A program made the position numbers and the translations under genes. The notes under the pieces are model-generated. The model did not search any database, was not told where the DNA came from, and saw only the letters and a list, made by a program, of their open reading frames with translations. A stretch of DNA of 32,000 nt from Conexivisphaerales archaeon (GTDB lineage Archaea; Thermoproteota; Nitrososphaeria; Conexivisphaerales; DTJL01), in contig JAVYTR010000002.1 in the NCBI GenBank assembly GCA_038728585.1, forward strand, positions 350,369 to 382,368. The letters are read 5' to 3'. Positions 3,728-32,000 of the stretch are shown here, piece by piece. Each line of letters begins with the position of its first letter. Position 1 is the stretch's first letter.

Positions 3728-4034
3728 CGAACCCTCACCCCTCGCCCCATGCAAACGCATTTAAAGTTATTTGCAGATAACCTGCATGGTTCAATTCAGT
3801 TTCATGATGTGCTGCAATGCGATATGCTCCAAACAGGAAGCATAGACCTAACAATCCTTATCCTCTTCGCATCGTAAGAAAAAAGAAAAGGAATTGGACC
3901 AAGGCTGTTATATACTCTACAGAACTGTTATACATTTCGTTGAAATAATGCCTTGACACACTCTTGCAGAAAAAGGAAAAAGGAATGACATTGATATCAA
4001 ACTCTGATGTTGTTACTTACCTAGAACGATGCCT

Positions 4035-4415
4035 CTACAGGAAACGGTTGGCCAGGATAACTATTATCAGTACCAAGGATGACATATCGTCACCAAAGGC
4101 ATCCGGATCTCCCAACTCGACAAATATCCAGGCGAATTTAACAATCAATCCTACAAGAGCTATTGCAGTGAAAAGGTTAGTTTGACTCTTCAGACTACTG
4201 AGCGAGGTTCTGTTCCTGAGAACCAAGTAGACAATCAGTATAATCGCTCCCAGAATCGTAACAGTCAGGTCATCCACTGTGAATAGAGGGTGGTCCATTT
4301 CTGAAAAGATTACCGGAGCAAAGGCAAGGCTGAGTCCGCCTACAACACCAAGGGCCCTTCGTCTACCAGCCCACTTTCTGACTGCTGGGATGTCCTCAGC
4401 GGGTTGTTGGGTCAT
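4035..4415 (-). CDS. hypothetical small membrane protein (3-4 predicted TM helices)
   Basis: 126 aa with hydrophobic stretches (GVVGGLSLAFAPVIF, LTVTILGAIILIVYLVL, LFTAIALVGLIVKFAWIFV, LVLIIVILA). No family recognised. Confidence 0.4.
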   Translation of the reverse strand: MTQQPAEDIPAVRKWAGRRRALGVVGGLSLAFAPVIFSEMDHPLFTVDDLTVTILGAIILIVYLVLRNRTSLSSLKSQTNLFTAIALVGLIVKFAWIFVELGDPDAFGDDMSSLVLIIVILANRFL

Positions 4416-27186: not shown

Positions 27187-27260
27187 GGGCCTGTAGCTCA
27201 GCCAGGTAGAGCAGTCGGCTCTTAACCGACGGGTCATGGGTTCGAATCCCACCAGGCCCG
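27187..27260 (+). tRNA. tRNA-Lys (anticodon CUU), no intron, CCA not encoded
   Basis: Hand-folded cloverleaf: acceptor GGGCCTG/CAGGCCC plus discriminator G; D arm GCTC-AGCCAGGTA-GAGC; anticodon arm GTCGG-CTCTTAA-CCGAC; T arm with GGG-TTCGAAT-CCC. One A-C mismatch closes the T stem. A T-rich tract follows the 3' end. Confidence 0.88.
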
Positions 27261-27315
27261 CTTATTTTATTAACCGAATCCTTTGTTACAATGGTACTGT
27301 AACCCTATTATATCA

Positions 27316-28308: not shown

Positions 28309-28316
28309 TATAAATA
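28309..28316 (+). promoter_or_regulatory. TATA-box-like element upstream of the mcrB-like gene
   Basis: TATAAATA ends 21 nt before the ATG at 28337, which suggests a leaderless or near-leaderless transcript. A second TTAAATAG at 28324-28331 could serve the in-frame ATG at 28352. Confidence 0.3.
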
Positions 28317-28336: not shown

Positions 28337-30121
28337 ATGGTAGAATATGCAATGAGATACATCGCTATTCAGGGTTCTCCGGTTAATTGGATCTGGAGCC
28401 TTAGAACCCTTGGAAAGAATGAAGTAGGTCCAGGATTTCACAAAGTAAATCCCAATAGTGAGCGATCATTAACCAAAAATCAAGACAAACTATTGTGGGC
28501 TTTTCGACAAAAACAAGATTTTAATAGACTTTCCGAGATATTACAATTCGAAGAGAAGGTTCAGGTGCTCGTCATTTCAACTGTTGGAAACAGCTATCAA
28601 TTGAATGCGGGGGGTGTGATAGCGTTTGGTGAGATCGTAAAAGAAGATGTTATTGGAGAACTCAAATGGGATTATTGGCCAGAGGGTTCTGGCTGGGATT
28701 ATAAGTTTTATATAAGAATAACAAAATTAGCACCGAAGCTGCAAGAGAACTTAACAAAACTTAATAATATCCAGTCTCCAGAAATTGGTAATTTAGTTTC
28801 TGTTATGAGAGAATCAAGGGAAGATGTCTTGCCAGTCGTCCCAAAAAGCGTGACCAGAGGGTCGCTATCGGAACTGGACCATAAGACGTTTGATATATTC
28901 GAATTTCTGGCCTCTAAATACTGGGTAAAACAAAGAGAAGTCCAAATAGGTGTCACAAGCCTGTCGGAAGACCTTCAAAAGATAGCTACCATGCATCTTC
29001 TCGCGGGTAAAAATATCATAGTTTATGGACCGCCTGGAGTGGGAAAGACAATATTCGCAAAGAGTCTTTGTGAAAATCTAGGAATAGGTTTCCGTATAGA
29101 AACAGGGAACCCAGAGTGGACCGCTTTTGATGTAATTGGCGGCTACGACATTAATAATAAGTTTCGTATAGGATTTCTTACAGATGCTGTAGTTTCATGC
29201 CATATTTCACTCAAAGAGAGCGGAAGACCATATTGGTTAATTATAGACGAAATTAATAGAGCAAACCTAGATCTTTCCTTTGGTAATGCATTCACAACAT
29301 TAGATCTAGCCCACCGGCCTAATACTCCATTGGTAGAATTTTATGAAAGCCTTGACGAAAACAAGGGTAAAAATGAGAAACTAATGTCCATACTTAAAGA
29401 GTACGGATCGAAGAAGATGGCCCTATTCGTACCGTTATCCTTTAGAATTATAGGAACAATGAACAGTTATGACAGAACACTTCTATTTAGGCTAGGCTTC
29501 GCAATGATCAGAAGATTTGCTTTCATACCATTATCCACGAAAAAGTACACCCTTTCAGTAAACGATGACACTTTTATTGAACAAGCTAAAATTTTGACTA
29601 ACGAGTCTAACGAAAACTGGAAAGAGACATTTCAAAGTGCATCTCGAGAATTGATGCTGAAGGGCGACATACAAAATGATTCCGTCACCTTTAGAACCGA
29701 TTCAATGCCTCAGGAACCTTACCTGATTGACGAGAGTTTAGGCGAATTATCTTCAGATTTGAATGCTTTTAGGTTGATCCACGCGATATGCCAAAGGATA
29801 AACGAGATTTTGGTCGGTAGTCTTGAGGTGGGTATGGCTTTGGAAATTGACGCAATGAAATTTATGCTAGCCGCTACCTCATATTTTGGGGAATCATGGA
29901 AAACATTCGGTAAAGGTCTGGTTGACCAAGCGGTTAACTCATACATATTGCCACAATTTGACGCGTTATCTGAACAACTCCGAGCTGAAGCATTGGGTAT
30001 GTCAAGCAGCCAAAGTGTACAAAATAAAGTAAAAGAAGTCAATGTATTATTCAAAAATCTGCGATTGAATGATAGCTTGGCCAGTATCGAACGGATAATG
30101 AACGGGGAAAGAATCTTTTGA
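28337..30121 (+). CDS. mcrB: McrB-family AAA+ GTPase with unrecognised N-terminal (putative DNA/modified-base reader) domain and long C-terminal extension
   Basis: 594 aa. Walker A is GPPGVGKT (aa 231-238) and Walker B is WLIIDEINRAN (aa 300-310). IIGTMNSYDR corresponds to the McrB MNTADRS/NxxD motif, and MIRRFAFIPL to McrB ALRRRFSFI. Aa 1-~225 and aa ~401-594 lie outside the AAA+ core. Confidence 0.8.
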   Translation: MVEYAMRYIAIQGSPVNWIWSLRTLGKNEVGPGFHKVNPNSERSLTKNQDKLLWAFRQKQDFNRLSEILQFEEKVQVLVISTVGNSYQLNAGGVIAFGEIVKEDVIGELKWDYWPEGSGWDYKFYIRITKLAPKLQENLTKLNNIQSPEIGNLVSVMRESREDVLPVVPKSVTRGSLSELDHKTFDIFEFLASKYWVKQREVQIGVTSLSEDLQKIATMHLLAGKNIIVYGPPGVGKTIFAKSLCENLGIGFRIETGNPEWTAFDVIGGYDINNKFRIGFLTDAVVSCHISLKESGRPYWLIIDEINRANLDLSFGNAFTTLDLAHRPNTPLVEFYESLDENKGKNEKLMSILKEYGSKKMALFVPLSFRIIGTMNSYDRTLLFRLGFAMIRRFAFIPLSTKKYTLSVNDDTFIEQAKILTNESNENWKETFQSASRELMLKGDIQNDSVTFRTDSMPQEPYLIDESLGELSSDLNAFRLIHAICQRINEILVGSLEVGMALEIDAMKFMLAATSYFGESWKTFGKGLVDQAVNSYILPQFDALSEQLRAEALGMSSSQSVQNKVKEVNVLFKNLRLNDSLASIERIMNGERIF

Positions 30122-31611
30122 GTCTGGTACTAGAGTTTAGAGAAGACAAAGACTATGAATGCGATGAAATTCAAGAAGTAATAAAACAGAAGTTACCAAG
30201 CCAACAGTCATCAACTCTTGTTGATGAAATAATTGAGTTTGTAGATAAGAATCTAAACCGCAGTATGCGAATCTTGATAGAGCTCCAATATTCTGATTTT
30301 AGGATAGAGTCTCCATTACCAGTTTTTCGCCATAGAAAAAGACAGATCAATTTCGGACAATGGGTTGGTGTGTATAGATTCTACTCGGAAGAGCTAGCTT
30401 CTGAAGTTACGATAAAAGTCGTTCCTAAAATTCCTCTTCAATCGTTCACTCTTATGTTGAATGAAGTTTATGGTCTCGTGCAAATGTACGGCGTTCCGGC
30501 TTTGGACGTGGTATCGCTTAATCTGCACGGTTATAGTAATTTCCGTGATTGTCTGACATACAGTTTCCTACTAAATAGGTTAACAGAGTTAGCTTTTGCA
30601 CATGGTATAGTTAGGCAGGCTACATTCGTACGATATTCTTCTGGAATACAGATGGGCTTGATCGACAGACATAGAACAGCCTATAATTTACAAAGGGGAA
30701 TACCACTGATAGAATCCAAGAAATTTACAGCGAAGTACCCTGATCTCTTTCTTATGTTATTAGTTAGGTTTCATTTAATGCTCAGTCATGATATCAATGA
30801 GCAAGTCGCTAGATTTAGAAACTTGAATCCAAACAAGGGCGATCCGTTGGACCACATGCTGAGTACCATTAAAGTATCGCAAGCTCAACATGCTAAGTAT
30901 CTATCAGATGGTATCTTGCAGAATTACATAGCTGCAGCACTGTCTTTTGACTTTGAAGATTTTGGGCTATTACGAAATATCCGAAGCGAAGTAAAGTATA
31001 ACGAATGGTTTAAGGCAATTGTTGACCTATTCGAATCTTACTTGTCAAAAAGACCCGTCAGAGTTAAGTTAAAAGAGTCAGATCTAAGCGAAGTTGCAGT
31101 TCAACCATTACCTTCCAGTAAGGTCTACGAGTTGTGGATACTTACACTGTTTAATCGAATATATGGAAAATATAACTCCAGAAAGCCAGTTATAATGCGT
31201 ACCAATAATGGATTCGATTTCGTTTATGGAGATCTCGTGATTTGTTATAACTCTGAGAAACTAGAATGGAGTAAAATCTTCTCAAAAATAATCAGAAATT
31301 CCCCTAGACCAGATATGATACTAGCTGGGAAACATAAAAGAGCTGTGTTAGACGCAAAATACAGAGAAGTGAACCATTTAGGCGTTGAAGATATAGAAAG
31401 GATAATCAGCTATCTAGTGGATTATTCGGAACCTCAGGACCATGATGAAATAAAAGGCTTTCTTGTAACTCTTGGTGATTTGAATGTGAACGAAGCTAGC
31501 CGTAGAGATTTGGTGCCAAACCTGAGAATCTATCATCTTGTAGCTGATCCCAACCGTCCGAAAGAAGCAGAAGAAAATTTAGAAAGAGTATACCACAAAG
31601 TATTTTCGTAA
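30118..31611 (+). CDS. mcrC: McrC-like partner protein with C-terminal PD-(D/E)xK nuclease domain
   Basis: 497 aa. The TTG start overlaps the upstream stop (TTGA). The N-terminal QWVGVYRF...VTIKVVPKI matches the McrC/DUF2357 motif (VGvi...ieIlPKi). The C-terminus has E338 (YELW), P-D399 (RPDMIL) and D412-A-K414 (VLDAKYRE), a canonical PD...(D/E)xK arrangement. Confidence 0.72.
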   Translation: MSLVLEFREDKDYECDEIQEVIKQKLPSQQSSTLVDEIIEFVDKNLNRSMRILIELQYSDFRIESPLPVFRHRKRQINFGQWVGVYRFYSEELASEVTIKVVPKIPLQSFTLMLNEVYGLVQMYGVPALDVVSLNLHGYSNFRDCLTYSFLLNRLTELAFAHGIVRQATFVRYSSGIQMGLIDRHRTAYNLQRGIPLIESKKFTAKYPDLFLMLLVRFHLMLSHDINEQVARFRNLNPNKGDPLDHMLSTIKVSQAQHAKYLSDGILQNYIAAALSFDFEDFGLLRNIRSEVKYNEWFKAIVDLFESYLSKRPVRVKLKESDLSEVAVQPLPSSKVYELWILTLFNRIYGKYNSRKPVIMRTNNGFDFVYGDLVICYNSEKLEWSKIFSKIIRNSPRPDMILAGKHKRAVLDAKYREVNHLGVEDIERIISYLVDYSEPQDHDEIKGFLVTLGDLNVNEASRRDLVPNLRIYHLVADPNRPKEAEENLERVYHKVFS

Positions 31612-31628: not shown

Positions 31629-32000
31629 GTGTGGTGTGGACTGTTGACTGAGGAAGATTCAAAGTTTACAATCGGTAACTTAAAGACCTTAGTGAAGGAA
31701 TTTATATCCCAAAGGAAGTGGGAAAGATATCACAATCCGAAGGATTTGGCGGAATCAATATCCGTTGAGAGTGCTGAACTACTCGAAATTTTCCAGTGGA
31801 AATCACAGGAACAGAGTTGGTCTTTGGCTATGTCTGAGAAAGGCAGGACTAGGGTAAAAGAAGAGTTGGCCGACGTGCTGATCTACTGTATAAGCTTGGC
31901 AAATGTGCTTGGCTTGGACATCAACACTATTGTCAGAGAAAAAATCAAAAAGAATTCTGATAAATATCCTACAAATGGCTCAGAGAATCTCTTCGGGTAG
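31629..32000 (+). CDS. mazG: MazG-like nucleoside-triphosphate pyrophosphohydrolase, DCTPP1/RS21-C6 (dCTP pyrophosphatase) type
   Basis: 123 aa. WERYHNPKDLAESISVESAELLEIFQWKS and VKEELADVLIYCISLANVLGLDINTIVREKIKKNSDKYP closely parallel the DCTPP1 pattern (W.QFH.PRNL...GE.GEL.E.FQWK...; L.EELSDVLIYL...DL...I..K...N...YP) with the ExxE...ExxD metal motifs. The start is GTG 31629 or TTG 31644. The TAG stop is the last three bases of the window. Confidence 0.8.
   Translation: MWCGLLTEEDSKFTIGNLKTLVKEFISQRKWERYHNPKDLAESISVESAELLEIFQWKSQEQSWSLAMSEKGRTRVKEELADVLIYCISLANVLGLDINTIVREKIKKNSDKYPTNGSENLFG

Follow-up and report, generated by a model that had tools for sequence, protein, structure and literature searches.

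A divergent EVE/YTH-like domain, probably a modified-base reader, at the N terminus of an archaeal McrB-like GTPase

The window analyzed here is a 32,000-nucleotide stretch of contig JAVYTR010000002.1 (positions 350,369 to 382,368) from the Conexivisphaerales archaeon assembly GCA_038728585.1, and it encodes a 594-residue McrB-like protein whose N-terminal region (residues 1-225, nucleotides (nt) 28337-29011) could not be placed in any named family by a first-pass annotation. Our data suggest that residues ~1-200 of this protein probably represent a divergent modified-base reader from the EVE/YTH branch of the PUA-like superfamily, which would act as the target-recognition module of an island-borne Type IV McrBC restriction system. 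All of the peptides quoted in the first-pass annotation (RYIAIQGSPVNWIW, LWAFRQ, KVQVLVISTVG, GGVIAFGEIVKE, and LKWDYWPEGSGWDYKFYIRITKL) were found in the open reading frame (ORF) at 28337-30121. Its description of the N-terminal region as unrecognised was also borne out, as residues 1-225 yielded no Pfam family, no PADLOC family, and no meaningful NCBIfam match at E ≤ 1.

Predicted fold, sequence affinities, and distribution of the N-terminal domain

AlphaFold2, run with the family alignment, modelled residues 1-225 with a predicted local distance difference test score (pLDDT) of 87.7 and a predicted template modelling score (pTM) of 0.82, and residues 1-140 (core model) with a pLDDT of 91.2 and a pTM of 0.86. 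The modelled core comprises six strands (residues 8-13, 51-56, 74-81, 93-101, 105-108, and 122-131), two helices (15-22, directly after strand 1, and 59-71), and a loop at residues 109-121. Three tryptophans of this region (W54, W114, and W120) are essentially invariant, in keeping with the first-pass description of residues 1 to ~135 as beta-rich with conserved aromatics.

A Foldseek search of the Protein Data Bank (PDB) with the 225-residue model revealed that ranks 1-37 are all occupied by EVE domains, YTH domains, or archaeal McrB N-terminal domains (McrB-N), with probabilities mostly between 0.63 and 1.0; the same three groups account for 18 of the 20 best matches of the core model. These matches include the EVE structures of MJECL36 (2p5d), PH1033 (1wmm/2hd9), and THYN1 (5j3e/3eop), the YTH structures of CPSF30, Mmi1, YTHDF1/2, YTHDC1/2, and MRB1, and the McrB N-domains of S. 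marinus (6n0s) and T. gammatolerans (6p0f). More specifically, the core model aligns with PH1033 and MJECL36 at template modelling (TM) scores of 0.50-0.55 and a root-mean-square deviation of 3.3-3.9 Å over ~130 columns, and with YTHDF1/2, YTHDC1, and CPSF30 at TM scores of 0.48-0.51. When both models are considered, YTHDF1/2, YTHDC1, Mmi1, and CPSF30 are matched with probabilities of 0.9-1.0 and TM scores of 0.42-0.51, that is, no better than the EVE proteins. The S. marinus domain ranks 5th with the core model (probability 0.92), and that of T. gammatolerans reaches a probability of 0.69 with the 225-residue model. Since EVE, YTH, and archaeal McrB-N structures dominate the Foldseek matches and ASCH lies far down the list, the modelled fold places the N-terminal domain in the EVE/YTH branch of the PUA-like superfamily and not with ASCH, and the TM scores of ~0.5 mark it as a divergent member.

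Several other folds were tried and rejected. The ASCH structure 5guq came 50th, with a probability of 0.08, in the search with the 225-residue model, and neither SRA nor classical PUA domains were among the Foldseek matches listed. The E. coli McrB-N domain (DUF3578, PF12102) gave no Pfam match, no alignment before residue 220, and no entry in the Foldseek lists, and the DCD domain (PF10539) gave no Pfam match and an hhalign probability of 0.2% against a DCD-bearing McrB relative (P0070). The first-pass annotation had named two outcomes that would speak against its proposal, namely an unrelated, well-characterised fold such as E. coli McrB-N and the prediction of no ordered domain; Foldseek and Pfam did not return the former, and the confident models (pLDDT 87.7 and 91.2) run counter to the latter.

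In addition, profile searches of the PDB yielded marginal signals for both families, with the core profile matching the EVE protein PH1033 at E 0.026 (residues 52-130 aligned) and the 225-residue profile matching the YTH domain of MRB1 (4u8t) at E 0.18. The best PDB match of the core profile, a de novo TIM barrel (E 0.003), is an artefact, in which a designed repeat protein contributes four repeated fragments of 4.7 bits each. Pfam EVE (PF01878), whose gathering score is 23 bits, was detected in 5 of 25 relatives at E ~3e-3 and 17-18 bits, and Pfam YTH (PF04146) matched none of the 25 members at E ≤ 1. A firmer link came from a related metagenome locus (L017), which encodes a standalone EVE protein of 120 residues (3786-4148, minus strand) in convergent orientation right after its McrC-like gene. 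This protein was found with the family hidden Markov model (HMM) and scores above the gathering score of Pfam EVE (26.3 bits, E 8.3e-6), and hhalign aligned it with the family profiles at probabilities of 92.7% (E 4.3e-7) and 95.4% (E 1.8e-8). Homology to EVE is therefore supported despite the sub-threshold Pfam scores, given that the profile alignment is with a protein that passes the threshold. Collectively, the Foldseek results for two confident models and these hhalign probabilities lend support to the first-pass guess of a PUA-like (EVE/ASCH/YTH-type) domain. According to Bell et al. (PMC7641849), modest scores for EVE and YTH alike are found for many of the YTH-like domains of prokaryotes, and the window domain likewise matches EVE and YTH structures about equally well.

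The barrel is accompanied by additional segments. Residues 23-50 form an insertion that, according to the alignments, is present in the close subfamily and not in distant relatives; it carries the motif PPP-x-L-x-KK in the close relatives and is modelled as an ordered long loop (pLDDT ~85-92) with no regular secondary structure. Residues 133-202, which are conserved in the close subfamily and carry the motif SLTQGSL-x-ID-x-KTY, are modelled at a pLDDT of 82-95 as short helices followed by helices at 150-163 and 182-202, with a strand at 177-180 between these two. The first-pass annotation had regarded residues 136-225 as a separate linker or helical segment, a view that holds for residues ~203-225 but not for residues 133-202, which are confidently modelled together with the barrel. 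A conserved HL-x-AGKN motif in the helix of the linker region directly precedes Walker A. The target-normalised TM score to EVE structures is 0.63 when residues 133-202 are included and ~0.50 when they are left out. This gain hints that residues ~175-200 may correspond to the sixth strand and the C-terminal helix of the EVE fold, pushed out of place by inserted helices. The hhalign match to the EVE protein did not become longer when residues 132-168 or 132-172 were removed from the alignment.

A full-length search uncovered about 40 proteins of ~590 residues that align across 96-100% of the query and whose N-termini are 20-47% identical to that of the window protein (BLAST, MAFFT), and about 68 non-identical archaeal relatives retain the N-terminal domain. 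Conservation in dozens of archaeal proteins, together with the high-confidence fold, argues that residues 1-225 are not a chance extension of the ORF. Mean column identity in the core alignment is only 29%; the most strongly conserved positions are listed in Table 1. When residues 1-225 were compared by phmmer with 1.84 billion cluster representatives, only 17 matches emerged, nearly all of which have a McrB-type AAA+ domain behind the N-terminal region and 2 of which are contig-end fragments. When a single genome of each species was scanned for the sequence pattern, the domain was found in 4 of 185,579 species, i.e., a Methanomethylicota metagenome-assembled genome (MAG), Pyrobaculum sp. WP30, a Thermoproteaceae MAG, and a Thermoproteus MAG, and it also occurs on 28 metagenome contigs. 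The family is rare, and its carriers among the species genomes scanned are all Thermoproteota-type archaea. No viral relatives were found in IMG/VR, and a fold search of BFVD gave no meaningful match. Searches with residues 1-225 alone and with the core alignment returned no match in a database that does contain the domain carriers P0002-P0023, which we read as a prefilter limit for short queries. The Pfam families PF28527-PF28530 are annotated on distant McrB relatives and, in the precomputed Pfam annotation, on neither the window protein nor its close relatives.

Candidate base-binding pocket and proposed function

The first-pass annotation had called for a search for an aromatic cage, and sequence position and conservation point to W54, W114, and W120 as candidate cage residues. 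W54 is located on beta2, and both W114 and W120 are located in the loop that precedes the final long strand. In the hhalign alignment with the L017 EVE protein, W54 corresponds to the Trp of VWGV (a pairing also seen with PH1033), W114 to that of LWPEE, and W120 to that of IWPLR. In the YTH domain of MRB1, the triad lines up with W-W-Y, and the counterparts of W114 and W120 there, a Trp and a Tyr, are six residues apart. The W...W-x5-W arrangement resembles YTH m6A cages, but the same triad is present in standalone archaeal EVE proteins, and EVE domains of restriction enzymes read cytosine modifications. A YTH cage is built from two invariant Trp and a third residue that is Trp, Tyr, or Leu (PMC6356822), and the pocket of the VcaM4I EVE domain, which flips 5-methylcytosine (5mC) or 5-hydroxymethylcytosine (5hmC), is formed by P24, W82, and Y130 (PMC7897488). 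By analogy with N363/N367 of YTHDC1 (PMC6356822), N17 and S21 may serve as polar contacts to a flipped base.

We propose a mechanism that is modelled on the EVE domain of VcaM4I, T. gammatolerans McrB-N, and eukaryotic YTH domains. The reader domain would bind DNA and flip the modified base into a hydrophobic pocket lined by W54 on beta2 together with W114 and W120 from the YWP-x4-W loop; N17 and S21 on alpha1 would be likely to make polar contacts. The McrB AAA+ domain would assemble into a GTP-hydrolysing hexamer, and the McrC-like protein would stimulate the GTPase and cut DNA with its PD-(D/E)xK site. These well-studied counterparts are likewise our grounds for expecting base flipping, DNA and not RNA as the substrate, and the use of GTP. 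McrB hexamers hydrolyse GTP once McrC inserts into the ring, and it is McrC that cleaves (PMC7680126); T. gammatolerans McrB-N has a YTH fold that binds N6-methyladenine (6mA) DNA (PMC7680126, PMC7544203); and, among the EVE architectures found in defence systems, EVE-McrB is the most common (PMC7641849, PMC11090510). As to the base that may be read, a rough split of our expectation puts 6mA slightly ahead of methylated or hydroxymethylated cytosine and leaves a smaller, though still considerable, share to something else.

Several results weigh against this proposal. The window protein reaches no Pfam threshold, and its relatives match Pfam EVE below the gathering score only. Core-model Foldseek matches have TM scores of ~0.5 and E-values of ~1e-2, as for a related but divergent fold, and the window domain has no detectable sequence similarity to the two archaeal McrB N-domains whose structures are known. 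Pfam McrBC matches the McrC-like protein weakly (E 0.02-0.05), so that its assignment is one of synteny and motif, and PDB sequence searches with that protein, either alone or as a 6-sequence profile, gave no real match.

The domain might have retained the EVE/YTH fold and yet not read modified bases; it could bind unmodified DNA, either non-specifically or at particular sites, or only help to build or regulate the McrB hexamer, with its Trp residues being structural. Indeed, some McrB-family N-domains recognise unmodified sites, as does the B3 domain of LlaJI (PMC7680126, PMC12707154), the low TM scores and the large subfamily-specific insertions leave room for an altered function, and the window contains no methyltransferase or other clue to the target. 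We nevertheless regard this reading as unlikely, since the residues invariant over 68 sequences are the ones that align with EVE/YTH pocket positions, two of them are modelled in a surface loop and not in the core, and the characterised EVE/YTH domains of restriction enzymes all read modified bases (PMC7897488, PMC7641849).

Modified bases in RNA (tRNA, rRNA, or viral transcripts) could also be the target, in an RNA-directed system of the kind proposed for the CoCoNuT McrBC relatives that contain YTH. [quoted passage not shown] The evidence from the locus makes this very improbable, as the GTPase carries the canonical NxxD signature (MNSYDR) and not the NxD of CoCoNuT (PMC11090510), Pfam and PADLOC detected no coiled coils and no HEPN, cold-shock, or Hsp70-like domains, and the McrC-like partner has an intact-looking PD-(D/E)xK motif; moreover, the characterised archaeal YTH-McrB binds 6mA DNA and has little affinity for RNA (PMC7544203). 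We also give very little weight to the idea that the locus is a decaying or domesticated remnant, with a degraded integrase and a McrBC pair that no longer works as a restriction system. The 1.07 kb between the tRNA-Lys and mcrB, which hold only short frame-shifted ORF fragments, and the disrupted McrB gene copies of the related loci L015 and L016 would fit with decay, but both window genes are full-length, their catalytic motifs and candidate cage residues are intact, and the overlapping stop and start codons of mcrB and mcrC are preserved as in the relatives.

Variation was observed among the relatives. Pyrobaculum-type relatives (L002, L003, and L020-L026) are shorter (464-480 residues), have the signature MNLRDAR instead of MNSYDR, and carry a Cys and not a Trp at position 111, with additional conserved Cys (C-x3-C) in the insertion. 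The insertion of residues 23-50 is missing from distant relatives such as P0027-P0030 and P0036-P0042, which keep the classical EVE motif GD-x-V-F-x-Y. These proteins, and likewise the insertion-free P0046, P0048, P0052, and P0055, contain a four-cysteine cluster (C-x3-C ... C-x2-C) at N-terminal residues ~110-135, just after the barrel, which gives faint IBR, B-box, and treble-clef matches and is probably a zinc ribbon between reader and motor.

Comparison with known readers

The window domain finds its best structural and sequence matches in standalone archaeal EVE proteins (UPF0310/PH1033/MJECL36; PF01878; 1wmm, 2hd9, 2p5d). The motifs that the two have in common, given as EVE/window, are xWGx/LWAF on beta2, GD-x-V-x-FY/IV-x-x-G, and LWP...W-P-x-R-x-K-I/YWP...W-D-Y-K-F-F-I. 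Unlike the standalone proteins, the window domain is fused to a McrB motor and has a ~28-residue insertion after alpha1 and a ~70-residue helical extension, and its subfamily has lost the GD-x-V-x-FY motif as such and falls below the Pfam threshold.

The overall layout, a PUA-like reader at the N terminus of an archaeal McrB with a McrC partner, is that of T. gammatolerans McrB (TgMcrB; 6p0f/6p0g) and S. marinus McrB (6n0s). Their N-domains belong to the same superfamily by fold, but they have no detectable sequence similarity to the window domain and rank below standalone EVE proteins and eukaryotic YTH domains as matches. Reader and motor are joined by a 7-residue linker in TgMcrB (PMC7680126), whereas the window protein has ~70 residues of extra helices and a ~20-residue linker. 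The eukaryotic YTH domains (YTHDF1/2, YTHDC1, Mmi1, MRB1, and CPSF30) share the fold, the order of the three aromatics, and a similar spacing; the first Trp is followed by Ala or Gly in the window family and by Ser in YTHDC1. In contrast to these domains, the window domain has no Pfam YTH match, stands in a restriction context, and presumably has a DNA substrate. VcaM4I (EVE-HNH) and other EVE-nuclease or EVE-McrB Type IV enzymes likewise couple a reader of the EVE superfamily to a nuclease system. In VcaM4I, which reads 5mC/5hmC, the base is flipped into a hydrophobic pocket formed by P24, W82, and Y130 (PMC7897488); by analogy, the same face of the window domain would receive the base, with the candidate Trp triad in place of these residues.

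The first-pass annotation had raised the possibility of a new specificity module. What we found is a new subfamily that is invisible to Pfam, within a superfamily that was already known. The novelty is limited to a rare Thermoproteota-type subfamily that is missed by profile libraries and has characteristic insertions and an invariant Trp triad; the EVE-McrB-McrC pattern is already known, archaeal YTH-like McrB N-domains have been crystallised, and this is no new kind of system. Even so, a region that was blank in every profile library tried now has a predicted fold and a candidate pocket (W54, W114, W120, N17, and S21), and a rare, archaea-only branch is added to the EVE/YTH readers that steer McrBC restriction. 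Modification-dependent restriction has been little studied in Thermoproteota. The domain is small (~200 residues) and well-behaved, with a confident model, so that its base specificity would be directly measurable.

A more far-reaching scenario, which we consider rather doubtful, is that the Thermoproteota-restricted Trp-triad domain reads a base modification so far unassigned to any McrBC system (e.g., one specific to hyperthermophilic-archaeal viruses) and possibly represents an intermediate lineage, as might follow from its about equal scores against EVE and YTH structures. If this were true, the intermediate lineage would throw light on the descent of the eukaryotic m6A readers of the YTH type from defence modules of archaea, and the 28-residue insertion and 70-residue helical extension would add discrimination of sequence context or strand. 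A reader of new specificity could also serve as a reagent for detecting modified bases.

Motor, McrC-like partner, and genomic setting

The features of the locus are compiled in Table 1.

Table 1. Features of the McrB-McrC locus in the window and conserved residues of the N-terminal domain (conservation: family alignment of up to 68 non-identical sequences)
Feature	Position (nt)	Strand	Residues	Basis or remark
tRNA-Lys(CTT)	27187..27261	+		ARAGORN; marks low-GC island boundary
TATAAATA, possible archaeal TATA box	28309..28316	+		~25 nt upstream of mcrB ATG; sequence read directly
mcrB-like gene	28337..30121	+	594 aa	Probable N-terminal EVE-like reader and McrB-type AAA+ GTPase
Predicted EVE/YTH-like beta-barrel core	28355..28729	+	7-131	AlphaFold2 core model, Foldseek, hhalign
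N17 and S21 on helix alpha1, candidate hydrogen-bond partners of flipped base	28385..28399	+	N17, S21	Near-invariant
Insertion (~28 residues) between helix alpha1 and strand beta2	28403..28486	+	23-50	Specific to close subfamily
First candidate cage Trp	28496..28498	+	W54	LWAF motif on beta2
YWPEGSGW loop with second and third candidate cage residues	28673..28696	+	W114, W120	Conservation, alignments
Helical extension, short strand 177-180, long helix 182-202	28730..28942	+		Packs with barrel; conserved
Linker and helix into AAA+ module	28943..29011	+	203-225	pLDDT 54-69
Walker A GPPGVGKT	29027-29050	+	231-238	Motif located in sequence
Walker B LIIDEINR	29237-29260	+	301-308	Motif located in sequence
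McrB signature MNSYDR	29459-29476	+	375-380	Motif located in sequence
mcrC-like gene	30118..31611	+	497 aa	TTG start
PD-(D/E)xK motif of McrC-like protein			E338, RPD 397-399, DAK 412-414	Located in sequence
MazG-like nucleotide pyrophosphohydrolase gene	31629..32000	+		Cut by window end; Pfam MazG-like E 4.3e-19
Conserved glycine			G13	64/64
Conserved asparagine			N17	64/65
Conserved serine			S21	65/66
Conserved tryptophan			W54	68/68
Conserved phenylalanine			F56	66/68
Conserved tryptophan			W114	68/68
Conserved proline			P115	65/68
Conserved tryptophan			W120	66/68, Tyr in other 2

With Walker A, Walker B, and the NxxD signature all located in the sequence, the motor is identified as a McrB-type AAA+ core. 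Pfam AAA_5 spans residues 226-394 (E 2.5e-12), and the NCBIfam McrB model matches the window protein at E 2e-11, with a score that falls well short of the equivalog cut-off. The match to E. coli McrB (6hz4) covers only residue 220 onward (E 5e-11), and T. gammatolerans McrB matches in the AAA+ region only (E 1e-8). The signature MNSYDR fits the canonical MNxxDR (NxxD) type. CoCoNuT McrBC systems are distinguished by a GTPase motif of the NxD type, by coiled coils, and by additional domains for nuclease activity or RNA binding (PMC11090510), and membership in this subclass was rejected on the basis of the signature; Pfam and PADLOC identified no CoCoNuT-type coiled coils and no extra nuclease or RNA-binding domains in either the McrB- or the McrC-like protein. 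Motors that are ~30-35% identical to that of the window protein bear other N-terminal or internal modules, such as DCD (P0070), EVE (P0096 and P0099), DUF4357 (P0094), and DUF3578 (P0092). This variety agrees, as does the literature, with the first-pass statement that McrB specificity modules are swapped between lineages.

As regards expression of the gene, the element TATAAATA is a possible archaeal TATA box, and its position ~25 nt before the ATG, which leaves no room for a Shine-Dalgarno sequence, suggests that the mcrB transcript may be leaderless. An antisense ORF at 28708-28956 (82 residues) was dismissed as unsupported; it overlaps strongly conserved coding sequence of the plus strand.

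The TTG start of mcrC overlaps the TGA stop of mcrB (TTTTGA, 30118-30121), and the same overlap in the relatives suggests translational coupling of the two genes. Among the related loci, which were gathered with an alignment of close relatives, 20 contain an entire McrB-like gene as well as sequence downstream of it, and in every one of these a homologous McrC-like gene comes directly next, its start codon usually overlapping the preceding stop codon. Given the weak Pfam McrBC match and the blank PDB searches, synteny is the stronger argument for the identity of the McrC-like protein. Y337-E338, R397-P398-D399, and K414 are invariant across 6 McrC-like homologues, in a PD-(D/E)xK pattern, and the N-terminal part of McrC (DUF2357) was not recognised in the 497-residue protein.

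The MazG-like gene that follows is also found after mcrC in the loci L008 (5895-6257) and L012 (4169-4528), with phmmer E-values of ~1e-34, and is missing from most other related loci. It is possibly a third component of the module, which might, for example, clear modified deoxynucleoside triphosphates.

Upstream of the locus, the window contains ordinary archaeal housekeeping genes (MarC, PTH2, TruD, a diphthine-synthase-like methylase, CDC48, FEN1-like XPG, and SerRS). From ~27000 onward, the GC content drops from 0.45-0.49 to 0.38-0.40, and the 1.07 kb between the tRNA-Lys and mcrB contain only short ORF fragments that switch frame, e.g., MSNSKYSHLLDDEDVRRWFDNLEASSAVTAD and then LIRNLGPFSVEKT. 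The tRNA-Lys, the GC drop, and the ORF fragments together suggest a genomic island that is flanked by a tRNA gene and whose integrase has decayed. The 3' end of the tRNA was not found repeated inside the window, and the low-GC island extends beyond position 32000.

Two further arrangements were noted among the related loci. A Methanomethylicota MAG (L001, 3987-10790) carries two tandem McrB-McrC pairs, in which the second McrB is a close homologue of the window protein and the first (605 residues) has a different N-terminal domain with a faint Pfam EVE match (E 0.14). In L015 (4402-5298) and L016 (1756-3926), the McrB gene breaks off after ~298 residues and continues in other frames, Walker A is mutated to GPPGTGKK, and the McrC-like ORF is shortened too; these broken genes are probably either pseudogenes or assembly frameshifts.

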